DNA from: Leptonemataceae bacterium | Lineage (GTDB): Bacteria; Spirochaetota; Leptospiria; Leptospirales; Leptonemataceae | Direction of reading: 5' to 3' | DNA: 64,000 nt | Assembly (NCBI GenBank): GCA_965227295.1 | Contig: OZ245742.1 | Span: 3,680,001-3,744,000 of the forward strand | The notes under the pieces: generated by a model | Told to the model about the DNA's origin: nothing | The model's input: only the letters and a program-made list of their open reading frames with translations | Databases searched by the model: none | Part shown: positions 57,559-64,000 of the stretch, one piece after another | Layout: every line of letters begins with the position of its first letter | Numbering within the stretch: position 1 is the stretch's first letter | Translations under genes and position numbers: made by a program

Positions 57559-59262
57559 ATGCCCGATTTTCTCACAAACATTTTGAATCAGCTCCAGGAA
57601 CTCTGGGGGAAACTCGACAACACCAAGAAGATAACCCTCGGCGCCGTAATTGCCGCCGTGATTGTTGCCTTCACCGCCATGGCGTCGTTTTCGTCCAAGC
57701 CGGCGAAAGTTCCGCTGTACGAAGACCTGAACGCTCAGGATTTCGGTTCGATCACGTCGGCGCTGCAGGCGATGGGTTACTCCTACTCTGCCTCCGGCAC
57801 CACGGCGATTTACGTAGAATCGGACGAGCGCCAGGAGATCATCACCAAACTCGCCCAGGATTCCCTGATTCCCGCCGGGGTGGAGGGTTACGAGATCTTC
57901 GACATGTCGCGCTGGGACGAGACGACGTTCGATAAGAACGTCAAGTTGCATCGCGCCATCAAAGGTTCGCTGGAAACGATGTTAATGACGCTGGACTTCG
58001 TGAAACGCGCGAATGTGAATCTGGCGATTCCGGAACGGAACAACTTCCTTACGGACAGCGAACCGGTGAAGGCGTCCGTTGTTCTCTCGCTGCAACCCGG
58101 TATCGAAAAGGTCAGCCGCCGACAGGTGATGGGCATTAAGAACCTGATCTATCGTTCGGTGCCGCGCCTGGAGCGGGATAACATCAGCATCACCGACGAA
58201 GGCGGCAAAGAGTTCGTGGAACCGGATGAGATTGATGAAGCGCAGCGCGAACTCGATCTCGTCGAACGCAAAAAGGAGTTCGAGTATCGCGAAGAACGTC
58301 GCTGGCGTGAAGAGATTCGCGGCCGGTTGCACGAGTTCTATCCGGAAGATCGCATCTCCATCATTCGCGTCGCCTTTACCGTAAACTGGGACGAGGTCGA
58401 AGAGAAACAACATCTCGTGGCGCCCGTCGAGAAAACGCCGGAGAATGCCGAGACCCCGTATCCGGACCGCGAGATTATGGAGGACGGAACGATCACCGTT
58501 TCGCGCAACCGTCGTCAGGAACGTTTCCGCGGCAACGGCTTCACCCCCGGCGGACCCACCGGTACCGAACAACAACTGCCGCCGGGTTATCGCGATCTCG
58601 ACTACCAGCGTTCCGAGTACGGAAACAACGACGTCATCGAAAACTTCGATTATAACCGCATCGAAAAAGAGATTACGCGTCAGCCCTGGGAAGAGCGTTC
58701 GCGCTCTATCGCGGTAGCCGTGGACGGCACCTGGACCCGGGGGATTCCGTATCAGAAAGAAGACGGCTCCTGGGCCTACGAACGCACCTACGAACCGCCG
58801 GCGCAGGAGGAACTGCAAACCCTGGAACGTTTGCTGAAGGCGTCCCTGTTGTTCAAAGGCGCGCGCGGCGACCAGATCGAAGTGCGTCACTTGAAGAAAG
58901 ACCGCTCGGCCGAGTTTGCCGCGGAAGATGAAGCACTGACCCGTGAGCGTTTTATCCGCACTCTGTTGATCGTCTCGGCGGTGGCTCTCGCGGCGATGAT
59001 CTTCGTCTACTTGCTGTATCGTGCCATCAAGAAGGAGATCGCCCGGCGGCGGCGTCTGCGCGAAGAAGAACTCGCGGCACAGCAACAGCTCATGCGCGAA
59101 GCGGCCCTGCGGGTCGCCGACGAGGGCGCGGCGGAAGTCGAACTCTCCGTGGACGAAAAGGCCCGGCGCGAGATGCTCGAAAACGCCATGAATCTGGCCC
59201 GGGAAAAACCCGATCAGGTGGCGAAGCTGATCCGCACCTGGTTGTCCTCGGACGAAACGTAA
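57559..59262 (+). CDS. fliF: Flagellar MS-ring protein FliF
   Basis: Two TMs, GYEIFD, ANVNLAIPE, KASVVL, KPDQVAKLIRTWL. Confidence 0.96.
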   Translation: MPDFLTNILNQLQELWGKLDNTKKITLGAVIAAVIVAFTAMASFSSKPAKVPLYEDLNAQDFGSITSALQAMGYSYSASGTTAIYVESDERQEIITKLAQDSLIPAGVEGYEIFDMSRWDETTFDKNVKLHRAIKGSLETMLMTLDFVKRANVNLAIPERNNFLTDSEPVKASVVLSLQPGIEKVSRRQVMGIKNLIYRSVPRLERDNISITDEGGKEFVEPDEIDEAQRELDLVERKKEFEYREERRWREEIRGRLHEFYPEDRISIIRVAFTVNWDEVEEKQHLVAPVEKTPENAETPYPDREIMEDGTITVSRNRRQERFRGNGFTPGGPTGTEQQLPPGYRDLDYQRSEYGNNDVIENFDYNRIEKEITRQPWEERSRSIAVAVDGTWTRGIPYQKEDGSWAYERTYEPPAQEELQTLERLLKASLLFKGARGDQIEVRHLKKDRSAEFAAEDEALTRERFIRTLLIVSAVALAAMIFVYLLYRAIKKEIARRRRLREEELAAQQQLMREAALRVADEGAAEVELSVDEKARREMLENAMNLAREKPDQVAKLIRTWLSSDET

Positions 59263-59375
59263 ACTGTTAGCGGCCGCCGGTTAAAGAAATGCCACGGCGG
59301 CCGCCTTTGTTCTGATCCTCGTTCTGACGCCATTGGTCTTCGGCCGGCACAGTACGTAGGGAATGTGAGATCCTG

Positions 59376-59400
59376 GGGGGCAGCGATGCCCCCTTTTTTT
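59376..59400 (+). terminator. Intrinsic terminator downstream of fliF
   Basis: gggggca-gcga-tgccccc-ttttttt; an additional 10-bp hairpin lies at 59270-59304. Confidence 0.85.
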
Positions 59401-59429
59401 CGTTGGGCGTCTTTGCGATCATACGAGTC

Positions 59430-60749
59430 ATGAACGTCCAGGAACAAATTCAGTTCGCCCGTTTCTTCGTAATCGAAGCGGCCGCAGAGATCGGAGCCGA
59501 CGTTCTGGCTTATCTGAATCGGGACGAAACCAAAGATCTAAAGCGTTGGTTGATGGATCGAACTCCGCCTTATCCGGAATTCAGGGAAGGTCTGCTCATC
59601 TGGTGGAACAAAGTGGCGCTGGAGGAATCGAACGCGATCGATCTTACCGCCGCGCTCGATCCGGAACTTCGACGGCGATTGTTTCCAGACACAAAGCCTG
59701 CGCTGCGCGAGCGACGAGACGATGGTCTCGCCGAACTCGGCCCATTGATTCAACAGCGTAACGCTCATCATCCCGGCGAACCAATTGAGGAACTGAGCGT
59801 CGACGAACGTGCGCGGCGGGAAATGTTTGAAAACTTTCTAGCGGCGTTTGTAGAGCAATCGGGGGCGGCGCTGGAACGTCTCGATCGGGCCGCGGCCGCG
59901 ATGAGCGCGGAATACCTGGAGAGGCAGGAGCGTCGCTTGCCCGCGCAGGACCTGCGCCTGGAGTTCTTGCGGGGAGTGGCCGCGCGTCTGGGCGTGGAGC
60001 AGACCGAACAACAGCGAAGTTTTGTTCGGGGATTGCATGATCGTGAAGTGCGACTTGTATTCGCGTACTTGAACCATTGCGATATCAGGCCAGCATCCAG
60101 GGGACTCTTGCGTTCCGGCGAGCGAAGCAAGGATGCCGTCCAAAGATTGCGCCGGGTGTATCGTCGCCTGTTCGCGGGGAGGCGCGCTTGCAGGCCGGTG
60201 CGGGAATGGGAGATAGGTTCGGAAGATGAGTATCGGCCGCTTGCGTTTGGCACGGGTAAGGACGGTGCTTTATACACGCTGGAAATTTTGCATGATGATC
60301 GGGCTGCTGTGAAGGGTATGATCGAGCGTTTGTCGCCCGATGGTGAGCGGGTCAGGGTTGTGCATATCGCCGGGACAGCGGAGAGGTATGCACAGGACTT
60401 ACGGGTTACGGAAGACGCCCTTCATATTCTATTTGGCCCGCGCGGATATCTGGATCACGGTGATGACGATGCGGAACCGGTATACTCGATCGCGCGACTG
60501 AGTCATGATGGCTCCTTCCTGGATGAGAAAATCCTTTCGGAGGATGAGAACATTCACTCTGGCATGGATCGGCTTGTGCCGGATGAGCTACAGTTTTATC
60601 GATCGTTCACGCCAATGCCCGAGCACTTGCATCGCCTGATGTTTCGCGACACCGACGGGCGCCGATTTAGCTTTGAGCGTTTTGTTGTGCGGGGCGATTT
60701 TCTGGCGGCAAGAATCGGCGGACGCATCCTGATCTACGCCCTGAAGTGA
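59430..60749 (+). CDS. Hypothetical protein with a FliF C-terminal-like motif and a weak FliG_N-like N-terminus
   Basis: ELSVDERARREMFEN versus FliF ELSVDEKARREMLEN; 439-aa ORF. Confidence 0.7.
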   Translation: MNVQEQIQFARFFVIEAAAEIGADVLAYLNRDETKDLKRWLMDRTPPYPEFREGLLIWWNKVALEESNAIDLTAALDPELRRRLFPDTKPALRERRDDGLAELGPLIQQRNAHHPGEPIEELSVDERARREMFENFLAAFVEQSGAALERLDRAAAAMSAEYLERQERRLPAQDLRLEFLRGVAARLGVEQTEQQRSFVRGLHDREVRLVFAYLNHCDIRPASRGLLRSGERSKDAVQRLRRVYRRLFAGRRACRPVREWEIGSEDEYRPLAFGTGKDGALYTLEILHDDRAAVKGMIERLSPDGERVRVVHIAGTAERYAQDLRVTEDALHILFGPRGYLDHGDDDAEPVYSIARLSHDGSFLDEKILSEDENIHSGMDRLVPDELQFYRSFTPMPEHLHRLMFRDTDGRRFSFERFVVRGDFLAARIGGRILIYALK

Positions 60750-60757
60750 TGTATGCG

Positions 60758-61225
60758 TCATATCTCTTCCGGTTCCATGTACTCCGCATACGCATGCAGT
60801 CGATCTTCCAGCGGCCCCAGCAAATGCCGCCGCGCGTCTTCGATTTCTTCCGCGGTCCATTCGTTATCGCCGGCGTTCTGGATCTCATCGCGTTTGTTCA
60901 TCGATACGTTGCGCAGGATGATCTCACGTAGTTCCGGTGCCGCACCGAAACACGCCGCCGCGATTGTTCGGCCGTCCAGAGGGCGTAACAAATCCTGCAA
61001 TGTTCGTGCGTGAAGTTTTTGCAAGGCCGCAAAGGGTAAGCGAAAGAAAGTTAGCGATTTTGCGAGCGGCGCCGCGCTTTCCAGGAGACCCGCGAATTCC
61101 CGGGCGAGTTCCGGAGACAGCCGGCGCATTACATCATGGAGCACATCCGCCGCGGGTCGCGGGGAGGGCGGCTCGCCGAGATTTAACAGGGCTTCGATTT
61201 CTTCGGGGGAGAGGAATTCGGTCAC
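60758..61225 (-). CDS. FliM-type N-terminal peptide fused to a FliG C-terminal-like domain
   Basis: MTEFLSPEEIEALL; FAALQKLHARTLQDLLRPLDGRTIAAACFGAAPELREIILRNVS...EEIEDARRHLL. Confidence 0.72.
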   Translation of the reverse strand: MTEFLSPEEIEALLNLGEPPSPRPAADVLHDVMRRLSPELAREFAGLLESAAPLAKSLTFFRLPFAALQKLHARTLQDLLRPLDGRTIAAACFGAAPELREIILRNVSMNKRDEIQNAGDNEWTAEEIEDARRHLLGPLEDRLHAYAEYMEPEEI

Positions 61226-61689
61226 GTATCACGTTTCCGCTGAATTTCCTGAAGCACGGCCACGTCCCACTGGTCGATCTCGCGCGATGTGGACTTGCTG
61301 CGAATCAAAGAGGCGATTCCCATGTACGGAATCATTACACCGTCGACTTCCTTTACAGCGCGATCCGCAAGTGCTTCTTCGTAGGTGACGTCCCATGCGC
61401 TGATCGCAACATCCACTTCAATTTCATCTGCGATCTTCAGGACAATGTGCTCTACGATGTCCTGCGCCAGGATCGGCTCCGGCAATTCCGGGAAAAGCTT
61501 TTCGAGCGCGGCCACCGTGCGCTTTAGATTTTCCGGGGTGTTTCGAATGAGAATATCGTAATCGTTCGTGGCCCGGACGTGGCCCTGGAGAGCGCAGGCA
61601 TAGGCGCCGGTGAACATATACTCTACTTCGTGGCTATTGAAAACAGTGGCCACGTCCGAGAGTGTGCGCCACGGATCATTCGGCGCCAT
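61222..61689 (-). CDS. Minimal nucleotidyltransferase (DUF6036-like)
   Basis: EYMFTGAYACALQGHVRATNDYDI...SLIRSKSTSREIDQWD. Confidence 0.82.
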   Translation of the reverse strand: MAPNDPWRTLSDVATVFNSHEVEYMFTGAYACALQGHVRATNDYDILIRNTPENLKRTVAALEKLFPELPEPILAQDIVEHIVLKIADEIEVDVAISAWDVTYEEALADRAVKEVDGVMIPYMGIASLIRSKSTSREIDQWDVAVLQEIQRKRDT

Positions 61690-61695
61690 GACGCC

Positions 61696-61884
61696 TCACA
61701 ACTCCCGGGCCGCGCGGGTGCGGACGAATTCGTCGTGTTCTTCCCAGGTGCGGAACTTGTAGACTCCGCGCGGCTTTTTGTACGGGCGGAGCCGTTCCAT
61801 CTCGGCGACCAAACGATGCATGCGCCGGTAGTTTTCGATGACGTTGTTTGGATCGGGGGCGTTGGGACCTGTAATCCGCTTCAC
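61696..61884 (-). CDS. Small partner protein upstream of the nucleotidyltransferase
   Basis: 62 aa with PRGVYKFRTWEE motif; co-oriented, 6-nt gap. Confidence 0.65.
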   Translation of the reverse strand: MKRITGPNAPDPNNVIENYRRMHRLVAEMERLRPYKKPRGVYKFRTWEEHDEFVRTRAAREL

Positions 61885-61997
61885 GCATCTATCAGATGCG
61901 CGGAAATTTCGGTGTCAAGCTGAATCGGCGGGGCCCGCGTGTTGCGGATTGACAGGATTTGTAGTGCCGGCACACTTTTCGGCAGGATTTCCCCGGA

Positions 61998-62442
61998 ATG
62001 GATGACGCGATGTTTGATCTCACTGCGGTACTGGTAAGCAGCCTGGCTGCGCTGACTTGCTTCCGGGTTTTCCGCGTGATCCATCGGATCCGGCGCCTGG
62101 TTCCTGTGGCCGTGCGCTGGTTCCGGCCGTCTTCGCTCTACGCGCGTCGGCATCGCTAATCGACCTGGTTCATCTTCCTCGGACTATCGCTGGCGTTGGC
62201 CGCGGCGGTGTTTTTGGTCGGTCTCGCATTGGAATGGTTCGTCGGTGATCGTAAGATTGTCGAGCGGCACTTCTGGACCTTCCTGCTCGCCGTGAGCGCG
62301 ACGCCGATTGCCTGGTATGCCTGGTTTGTGCGGGACCGCAACCGCTCAGAAGAGCTGAAGAACGACAGGTTCAAGAACATTCGCGAGAGTTTCTACAAGC
62401 TTCAGGAATGGGCGGTCAGTGACAACGAGGGGCAGGTGACCA
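61998..62442 (+). pseudogene. 5' part of a membrane-protein gene with an in-frame TAA (62157-62159), interrupted by a group II intron
   Basis: ATG 61998 is in frame with track ORF 62196; a hydrophobic helix TWFIFLGLSLALAAAVFLVGLAL starts right after the TAA; intron begins at 62443. Confidence 0.6.
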
Positions 62443-64000
62443 GTGCGCCGGGCAAAGCCCGATGTTTCTGATAAGGTGAAAGTCCATATGAAGTAAAGTT
62501 TAGCGAACAACTTCTACCGAGTGTTGCGTGGAAGCGGGTAACCGCCACACGAAGCGTACACAGGGAAGCATGCAGGCCGTAGGGGAGTCCACACTCCCGG
62601 AAGCTGTTGAGCCTCGTAAAATGCCATAGATGCAGACGGTGACATCATTGGTCAGATGGAAACCAGCACAAAGGAATCGTTTTAGCGAGATTCTGGAGGT
62701 CTGTCGGGGTCGCTTGAGCGCGGCATGTATGCAGAGAAACATCGTGGAACCCGGGAGACCCCGTTGGTTCCTTCGACGATAGCGAAGGTAATTCTGACCG
62801 AATGAACAAGGAAGAATGATGATCAACGGGGAGTCGGATCAGCCCATAGTACTCAGAGGGCGGGAGAGCCGTCCACAGAATCGAATGAAACTCGAATGGA
62901 GTTTCGACGGGTTCGGTCTTCGCGTGCGATGCGCGATGATCGGGGAAGGGGCTGACGAAAGTACGCAGCTCGCAGAGTCAACATCAGCCGGACGGCAGGA
63001 TCGGAACAACTGATGCAAACCTCACTACGGGCAATAGCAAATAAAGCGAGGAGGAGTAAGAAACATCTGTTTCGTAATCTGTATGGGATGCTCAACCAGA
63101 TGAATCTCGAAGATTCGTTCGCAGGAATGAATCGCCGGGCGGCTCCGGGCGTGGACCGTGAAACGTTTCGCGACTACGAAGCGAACCTTACGGAAAATGT
63201 CGGGGATCTGGTGGAACGCTTAAAACAGAAACGATACCGAACAAAACTGATTCGCAGGGTCTTTATCCCGAAAGCGGACGGAAAACAACGTCCGCTTGGA
63301 TTGCCGGCCCTCGAAGACAAACTGGTACAAACATGCGCGACGCGTATCCTTGAAGCGATCTATGAGCAAGACTTCCTGTCGTGTTCGTATGGTTATCGGC
63401 CGAACACCGGTCCGCGTGAGGCTTCGAAGACTCTGAGTTCAACTTTGAGTCCGGGGAAGCTCGGCTGGATTGTGGAAGCCGACATCAAGGGTTTCTTCGA
63501 CAACATTGACCATGATTGGTTGATGCGAATGCTGGAGCAACGAATCGATGATCGGGCCTTTCTCGGTCTGATTCGCAAGTGGCTGAAAGCAGGCGTGCTG
63601 GAGGTAAACGGTCAGGTCTCGCGCCCGACCGCTGGTACTCCTCAAGGCGGCGTGATCAGTCCGGTTCTGGCGAACGTCTATCTTCATTACGTACTGGACC
63701 TCTGGTTCGAGAAAGTGGTGAAGAAGCACTGCAAGAGACCGGCCTATATGTGTCGATACGCGGACGATTTTGTTTGCGCCTTTGAATCCAAAGACGATGC
63801 GCTGAAATTCTATGCGACGCTTGGAAAACGTTTGCGAAAGTTTGGTCTGGAACTGGCGCCGGAAAAGTCAGGAGTGAAAAGTTTCGAGCGCCCGGGCTTC
63901 CGCGCGAAGTTCAATACCGGGCGTGAGGCGTTCGTATTTCTAGGCTTTGAATACCGCTGGGCTCGTTCTCGAAAGGGGTTCTGGTGGGTTCCGCGTCGCA
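62443..64000 (+). mobile_element. Group II intron (IIB-type), 5' part; continues beyond window
   Basis: GUGCG 5' end; EBS1 tggtca (62649-62654, in a catc/gatg stem-loop) is complementary to IBS1 tgacca (62437-62442); RT ORF downstream. Confidence 0.92.
63013..64000 (+). CDS. ltrA: Group II intron reverse transcriptase/maturase (partial)
   Basis: MQTSLRAIANKA..., APGVD, RRVFIPKADGKQRPLGLP, SYGYRP, EADIKGFFD, GTPQGGVISPVLANVYL, YADD (63757-63768), FVFLGF. Confidence 0.96.
   Translation, partial: MQTSLRAIANKARRSKKHLFRNLYGMLNQMNLEDSFAGMNRRAAPGVDRETFRDYEANLTENVGDLVERLKQKRYRTKLIRRVFIPKADGKQRPLGLPALEDKLVQTCATRILEAIYEQDFLSCSYGYRPNTGPREASKTLSSTLSPGKLGWIVEADIKGFFDNIDHDWLMRMLEQRIDDRAFLGLIRKWLKAGVLEVNGQVSRPTAGTPQGGVISPVLANVYLHYVLDLWFEKVVKKHCKRPAYMCRYADDFVCAFESKDDALKFYATLGKRLRKFGLELAPEKSGVKSFERPGFRAKFNTGREAFVFLGFEYRWARSRKGFWWVPRR

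Follow-up and report, generated by a model that had tools for sequence, protein, structure and literature searches.

A small protein joins an EIDAL-type N-terminal peptide to a FliG C-terminal domain and is a candidate accessory protein of the flagellar switch

FliG is built from three domains. FliG_N binds FliF, FliG_M with its EHPQR motif binds FliM, and within the C-terminal region the MFXF motif forms the switching hinge between ARM_C and the C sub-domain. Five charges of E. coli FliG have been described as facing MotA, namely K264, R281, D288, D289 and R297 (PMC6079164). The EIDAL motif is reported as the CheY binding site of FliM, with sporadic occurrence in FliN/FliY (PMC6946799), and has been called a high-affinity CheY-P site (bioRxiv 10.1101/2022.04.21.489128); in E. 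coli, FliM_N reads MGDSILSQAEIDALL (bioRxiv 10.1101/781468). FliY offers a precedent for placing such a CheY-P tether on another switch-related body (PMC12826062, PMC6946799).

Here we describe a protein that carries an EIDAL-type peptide on a FliG C-terminal domain, which is a new domain architecture made from known modules. In the literature searched as full text, with most subscription journals outside its scope, we found no description of both modules in one small protein. The mini-gene (P0001) occupies positions 60758..61225, minus strand, of the window, by which we mean the whole 64,000-nucleotide stretch of the Leptonemataceae genome that was analysed. It begins with GTG, its frame is intact, and it encodes 155 aa followed by a stop. 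The N-terminus of the mini-protein reads MTEFLSPEEIEALL and leads into the linker GEPPSPRP, behind which lies the FliG_C body. The parts of the gene are these:

60758..61225, minus strand: whole mini-protein ORF, from the ORF list; same start M-T-[ED]-F-LS in homologues, and Pfam FliG_C above cut-off
61178..61225, minus strand: EIDAL-type peptide, residues 1-16, MTEFLSPEEIEALLNL; a conserved motif of the type found at FliM/FliY/FliN N-termini
61154..61177, minus strand: flexible Pro-rich linker GEPPSPRP, residues 17-24, from pLDDT and alignment
60776..61153, minus strand: FliG C-terminal domain, residues 25-150 (boundaries approximate), from the profile match, Foldseek and pLDDT
60818..61042, minus strand: stretch matching Pfam FliG_C (PF01706), residues 62-136, 34 bits, E 3.9e-8
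60854..60949, minus strand: equivalent of the FliG torque helix, residues 93-124, from alignments with the genome's own FliGs and T. maritima FliG

The mini-protein belongs to a very small family. A phmmer search of 1.84 billion representative proteins gave nine matches at E <= 1e-3, of which six, the query included, form the family: the closest relative P0002 (124 aa, 73% identical, C-terminally shorter), P0003 (165 aa), P0004 (171 aa), P0005 (168 aa) and P0007 (178 aa), the last from a contig that belongs to a Candidatus Lindowbacteria MAG. The remaining matches were two ordinary full-length FliGs (P0006 and P0009) and P0008, a FliG_C-only protein of 151 aa that has no N-terminal peptide and is not counted in the family. 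When a profile of the six members was run against 5.8 billion clusters, with 8000 candidates scored, the same six sequences came back. Pattern scans yielded one relative among 391 pattern matches in genome contigs and none among 590 pattern matches in metagenome contigs. The ESM Atlas contributed only leads with a score of 0.82, all of them stand-alone FliG_C clusters of 155-167 aa that are commonest in Bdellovibrionota and Pseudomonadota.

The preliminary description had proposed a chimera of a FliM-type N-terminal peptide and a FliG_C mini-protein, and this architecture, with the linker between, recurs in the mini-protein and all five of its relatives. It had also called for a survey of spirochete genomes. 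Within the host order, two of 156 genomes carry a family member, the host genome itself (G000, 214 bits) and one other (G013, 192 bits), with all next-best matches at <= 66 bits and belonging to full-length FliGs; a sample of 200 other genomes from 105 genera across the phylum contained none. The architecture is therefore not a spirochete feature. One further match (G011, E 6e-4) was rejected as a member, being a full-length FliG paralogue of 377 aa.

Across two phyla, members that share 33-38% identity have retained their length, their architecture and the invariant motif at the N-terminus. In G013, the copy has 33% identity to the mini-protein and is located 3.8 Mb away from fliF. FliM is present in all three mini-protein genomes that could be checked, and FliG was confirmed in two, the host genome and the Lindowbacteria MAG (G156), so that the MAG encodes FliG and FliM alongside its mini-protein. 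Gene neighbours differ in each of the three contexts available (host genome, G013 and Lindowbacteria MAG), which means that no pathway gains support from a conserved partner gene. In G013 we also observed a repeated element of ~100 nt (L010 1-279, 1990-2106), one copy preceding the mini-gene and another preceding a neighbouring gene. Read in frame it gives MQPRIL..ECAAASAAQTKLRAT.GAQLRLKT, and because of it the listed ORF of the mini-gene homologue is artificially long.

The mini-gene lies close to flagellar genes in the host genome. The window carries flgB-like, flgC-like, fliE and fliF genes, and the canonical fliG (338 aa, all three domains) follows about 8 kb beyond fliF. The features of the intervening segment on which the argument draws are as follows:

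57559..59262, plus strand: fliF, the left border of the insert (TIGR00206, 324 bits; YscJ_FliF, YscJ_FliF_C)
window 59263-64000 onward (G000 3739263-3747289): accessory insert of ~8 kb between fliF and fliG
59375..59394, plus strand: terminator-like hairpin with T-run just past fliF, 8 pairs of which 6 are G-C, a consensus match only
59403..60749, plus strand: 448-aa orphan ORF, convergent with the mini-gene, from the ORF list, with a 17-aa FliF-like stretch
61222..61689, minus strand: upstream 155-aa ORF, its stop overlapping the mini-gene start; Pfam Aminoglyc_resit at E 0.03, below cut-off

From fliF onward the insert thus reads hairpin, 448-aa ORF, the mini-gene with the 155-aa and 62-aa ORFs on the other strand, a reverse transcriptase, a 210-aa ORF and a 715-aa protein. 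The reverse transcriptase (window 63013 onward) has RVT_1 and GIIM domains and is of group-II-intron type, and the trypsin-like 715-aa protein gives a weak LmuA match in PADLOC. In two genomes of the same genus the mini-gene is absent; fliF and fliG are adjacent in one, and a single GNAT gene lies between them in the other. This comparison marks the mini-gene as part of an accessory insert. At the Rfam gathering threshold, the parts of the insert that were searched (window 62247-63000 left out) gave no match and no intron RNA.

Several other features of the insert were recorded. The 448-aa ORF contains ELSVDERARREMFENFL, which is identical at 13 of 17 positions to residues 528-544 in the C-terminal region of FliF (BLASTP E 2e-4). 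The DNA of the shared stretch is only about 73% identical and a Ser codon changes class (TCC vs AGC), so the stretch has not been duplicated recently. A search of 41 other genomes of the family to which the host belongs did not recover the ORF, which also has no Pfam match above cut-off and no look-alike in the Atlas; that a single insert contains two rotor-like peptides may be chance. Upstream of the mini-gene, the 62-aa and 155-aa ORFs (window 61222-61884, minus strand) could be a small toxin-antitoxin-like pair: the N-terminus of the 155-aa product is faintly nucleotidyltransferase-like, and the libraries lend the pairing no support.

Three origins or roles suggested by this setting were considered and rejected. 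A recent local duplication of fliG does not fit, as the mini-protein and the neighbouring FliG share 26% identity over 84 residues and no DNA repeat links the two genes; the distant position of the G013 copy relative to fliF also speaks against it. An origin from a mobile element was set aside when tblastn against 72,556 plasmid and 50,697 phage records gave no match to the mini-gene. A defence-system role was dropped in turn, PADLOC being blank for the mini-protein and the 155-aa, 62-aa and 448-aa ORFs and returning only the weak LmuA match for the 715-aa protein.

The same setting raises the possibility that a mobile or accessory islet carries the mini-gene as a passenger, neutral or in decay, created by domain shuffling and without a current role in the host. 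Its location in the ~8-kb insert between fliF and fliG, in the company of an orphan ORF, a trypsin-like/LmuA-like protein and a reverse transcriptase, is in keeping with the idea, as are its absence from both same-genus genomes, the mere six sequences known and the shortened P0002. A decaying gene would sit less easily with an intact frame, a confidently predicted fold and the retention of length, architecture and N-terminal motif at 33-38% identity in two phyla. The start codon of the mini-gene and the stop codon of the upstream 155-aa ORF overlap within GTGA. Overlaps of this type are typical of co-translated genes, and co-translation of the mini-gene with that ORF is suggested. Together with the lack of matches in the plasmid and phage collections, these points lead us to regard the passenger explanation as unlikely, if far from negligible.

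The N-terminal peptide is the best-conserved part of the family. The six-way alignment has 17 invariant columns, eight of them within the first 14 residues: M1, L5, S6, E8, E9, I10, L13 and L14 are shared by all six members, and the linker that follows differs among members in both length and sequence. The FliM consensus is seen in the opening M-x-E-V-LSQEEID[AG]LL-x-AI of P0004, P0005 and P0007, where 10 of 12 positions are identical to FliM N-termini. The Lindowbacteria MAG allows a direct comparison, its mini-protein beginning MAEVLSQEEIDALLTAIS and its own FliM MAEVLSQDEIDQLLAAIS. The host copy reads LSPEEIEALL, with P for Q and E for D relative to the consensus, where the three relatives have LSQEEID[AG]LL; these two changes could weaken CheY binding.

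We asked how often this motif occurs in the host genome. Across all six-frame ORFs of at least 60 aa (30,934 ORFs, 4.9 million residues), LS.[ED]E[IL][DE].LL matched four times, in FliM1 (341 aa), FliY (358 aa), a FliN-like protein of 197 aa and the mini-protein, and in every case the motif began at ORF residues 5-8. From composition alone one would expect 0.01 matches over all positions and 0.0006 when only the first ten are counted, so the motif exceeds chance. Loosening the pattern for the same ORFs brought in just FliM2 and a single internal site, within a 680-aa ORF. Moreover, the peptide is arranged as in EIDAL-type docking peptides, with the consensus near the N-terminus (within about 10 residues) followed by a disordered linker. 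The AlphaFold2 (AF2) model places a low-confidence helix at residues 7-16, pLDDT falls below 50 at linker residues 17-19, and residues 17-24 have no secondary structure. Pfam reported neither FliM (PF02154) nor FliMN_C nor the FliN-FliY SPOA family (PF01052) in the mini-protein at E <= 1.

Other switch genes of the host were noted alongside. FliG and FliM are each represented by three paralogues, with fliM genes at G000 4065632-4066657, 4067357-4068379 and 679474-680343, the first two of them near-tandem. The motif is degenerate in FliM2, where it reads IISREELENLL, and is missing from FliM3; FliY and the 197-aa FliN-like protein both carry the motif. The flagellar switch of this host looks like a multi-version one.

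The number and placement of flagella are set by FlhG, a MinD-like ATPase. For S. putrefaciens it is reported that FliM interacts with FlhG through its EIDAL motif, which is both necessary and sufficient (bioRxiv 10.1101/2022.04.21.489128). In the host genome, an FlhF-like gene, which at 165.7 bits falls just short of the 174.15 cut-off, is directly followed by the gene for a 326-aa MinD-like ATPase. These observations keep alive a rival in which the peptide recruits FlhG and not CheY-P, with the result that FlhG would be titrated or mislocalised and flagellar assembly, not switching, would be affected. We judge it improbable: the MinD-like gene is called FlhG by synteny alone, and no link between FlhG and a FliG_C body is known. 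The FlhG and CheY-P roles of the peptide are not mutually exclusive.

A different origin for the motif can be imagined within FliG itself, where a helix of FliG_N follows the pattern L-[ST]-P-[ED]-E-[IV]-E-A-L; the mini-protein would then be a collapsed FliG, a scrap of the N-domain joined to the C domain. The host copy does not discriminate. Its 12-mer EFLSPEEIEALL is identical at 8 of 12 positions to FliM1 and at 8 of 12 to the FliG_N segment TLLSPDEVEALL (residue 54) of P0006, an unrelated FliG. The family profile also aligns weakly (22 bits, i-E 0.0013) with the N/M region of A. aeolicus FliG, where the motif falls opposite ESVPEEEIENI. The other five members, however, score 9-10 of 12 against FliM/FliY N-termini and 5-7 of 12 against the best window in seven FliGs, a comparison in which the FliG side could draw on any window and hence on far more windows than the FliM/FliY side. 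The extreme N-terminal position and the disordered linker are FliM-like as well, and neither the strict nor the loose motif was found in the host genome's own three FliGs in the six-frame ORF scan. We therefore think descent from FliG_N very doubtful. On sequence grounds the peptide appears to be of FliM type, an assignment based on the other family members, the N-terminal position and the disordered linker, and not on the host copy.

The body of the mini-protein is related to FliG_C. The preliminary description had recognised a FliG_C pattern and named a Pfam search as the check; the search bore it out, aligning residues 62-136 with positions 18-94 of the 108-position profile at 34 bits, above the curated cut-off of 23.3 bits for PF01706. 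FliG_C was the only Pfam family reported for the mini-protein at E <= 1, and a precomputed PF01706 match exists for all six family members. A profile built from the family matched T. maritima FliG (4fhr_B) at E 1.3e-18, with profile positions 36-148 on chain residues 89-201, a span that corresponds to ARM_C plus the C-terminal helices. In the alignment with the genome's three FliGs, the body begins where FliG_C begins, right behind the Gly-Gly linker.

Structure prediction agrees with the profile results. The AF2 model, made from an 11-sequence alignment, has a mean pLDDT of 77, with values of 83-96 over residues 61-140, 62-73 over residues 21-50 and 54 over residues 51-60; its ARM_C part is moderately confident. 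With this model as query, the top Foldseek matches in the PDB were all FliG, among them 3ajc (E 5.6e-5) and 1qc7_B (TMt 0.82, rmsd 2.9 over 89 columns). Both elements of the FliG C-terminal fold, ARM_C and the six-helix sub-domain, are present. The protein is nevertheless a member of the FliG_C domain family and not a FliG proper: TIGR00207 gives 17.1 bits against a cut-off of 226.7, FliG_N and FliG_M are missing, and its 155 aa compare with 338-394 aa for the host genome's three FliGs.

What sets the body apart from FliG is the loss of the features used to make torque. The torque helix, which the preliminary description had called altered and shortened, indeed lacks KRAA and GPVR and has a three-residue deletion in the alignment with the genome's three FliGs. 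Residues F93, N110, N117, A118 and T124 stand at the positions of E. coli K264, R281, D288, D289 and R297, so that none of the five stator-contact charges is kept, with the E. coli numbering carried over by motif spacing on the T. maritima FliG alignment; among the other family members, the largest number retained is three (P0007). In place of the MFXF hinge, residues 62-65 read RLPF, and five of the six members have [RK]L[PS][FIL] here, the sixth, P0003, having CFQF. The missing charges, the helix deletion and the changed hinge together suggest that this predicted FliG_C fold is unlikely to make torque. The first two also count against the most improbable of the roles we weighed, in which a free FliG_C would bind the cytoplasmic face of MotA as a decoy or brake and withdraw stators, perhaps under CheY-P control, a role that a well-predicted C sub-domain and the appearance of chain 8ucs_H, from a solved MotAB-FliG complex, among the structural matches would favour but that the lost stator-facing charges and shorter torque helix disfavour.

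The host has the chemotaxis genes that a CheY-P-dependent role would draw on. A conserved CheY is encoded at the end of a cheW-cheA-cheB-cheY operon and is 78-95% identical to the listed relatives, whose names put the host with the Leptospirales-type spirochetes. A CheA of 1039 aa (G000 2933735-2936854) combines Hpt, P2, dimerisation, HATPase and CheW domains with a segment at the C-terminus that resembles CheC (Pfam CheC, E 4.6e-7). A 911-aa protein (G000 820150-822885, minus strand) is a fusion of an ammonium transporter domain with Hpt and HATPase domains, and its gene adjoins one for a CheY-like receiver of 120 aa and one for a receiver-adenylate/guanylate cyclase.

The reading we favour, tentatively, is that the mini-protein is an accessory protein of the flagellar switch that may bind CheY-P and serve as a decoy or an adaptor. 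The analysis establishes the gene, its architecture and fold, the conservation of the peptide throughout the family and the loss of the torque residues, whereas we infer that CheY-P is bound, what the FliG_C body pairs with and how motility is affected; the earlier suggestion that the protein couples or titrates CheY-P is a reasonable one given a peptide of this kind on a FliG_C domain. In such a scheme, the tethered peptide would capture CheY-P in competition with FliM and FliY. If the torque-dead body is soluble, the mini-protein would act as a CheY-P sink that damps reversals. If the body instead occupies the place on FliG_M/FliM_M where FliG_C docks, it would provide an extra CheY-P receptor at the level of the rotor. 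In either case switching would be modulated and rotation would not be driven, and the mini-protein probably tunes or soaks up the swimming signal and is not a motor driver.

A bolder version of this idea, which we consider a long shot, is a chemotaxis-gated clutch. Here the CheY-P-bound tether would bring the torque-dead FliG_C surrogate to the rotor, where it would replace the genuine FliG_C at ARM_M/FliM_M and leave that position uncoupled from the stators. If this were true, the CheY-P signal would lead to slowing or pausing instead of reversal, and the mini-protein would be a portable module for unrelated flagellated lineages, as represented by a Leptospirales-type spirochete and the Candidatus Lindowbacteria MAG.

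Should the peptide of the mini-protein bind CheY-P, the family would amount to a natural experiment in which chemotaxis input is moved from FliM to the level of FliG, or buffered. The mini-protein would then also be a compact reagent for probing a free FliG_C domain at the motor. Its general importance is limited by its rarity, with six sequences known and the present one located in an accessory insert. We accordingly see it as a curiosity of switch evolution and not as a widespread mechanism.

With the C-terminal domain of FliG (1QC7, 1LKV, 4FHR) the mini-protein shares fold and sequence homology across ARM_C and the six-helix sub-domain and the core motifs DR-x-[IL]Q-x-LL and N-[LMV]-S; besides the changes described above, it differs in a conserved Pro carried by its last helix. 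The stand-alone FliG_C proteins are likewise short and consist of the FliG_C domain only, but P0008 lacks the peptide, and the Atlas clusters, known by their score of 0.82, are leads and not matches. With FliM, FliY and FliN the mini-protein shares a peptide that starts at residues 5-10, follows the consensus LS-x-[ED]E-I-[DE]-x-LL and is joined to a disordered linker, whereas the domain behind that linker is FliG_C and not the CheC-like middle domain of FliM or a SPOA domain. FliY of the B. subtilis type has a catalytic CheC-like (phosphatase) domain and a ring-building SPOA domain, and the mini-protein has neither. Yet in both proteins an EIDAL peptide has been moved onto another switch-related body, and the host genome encodes a FliY of this very type.
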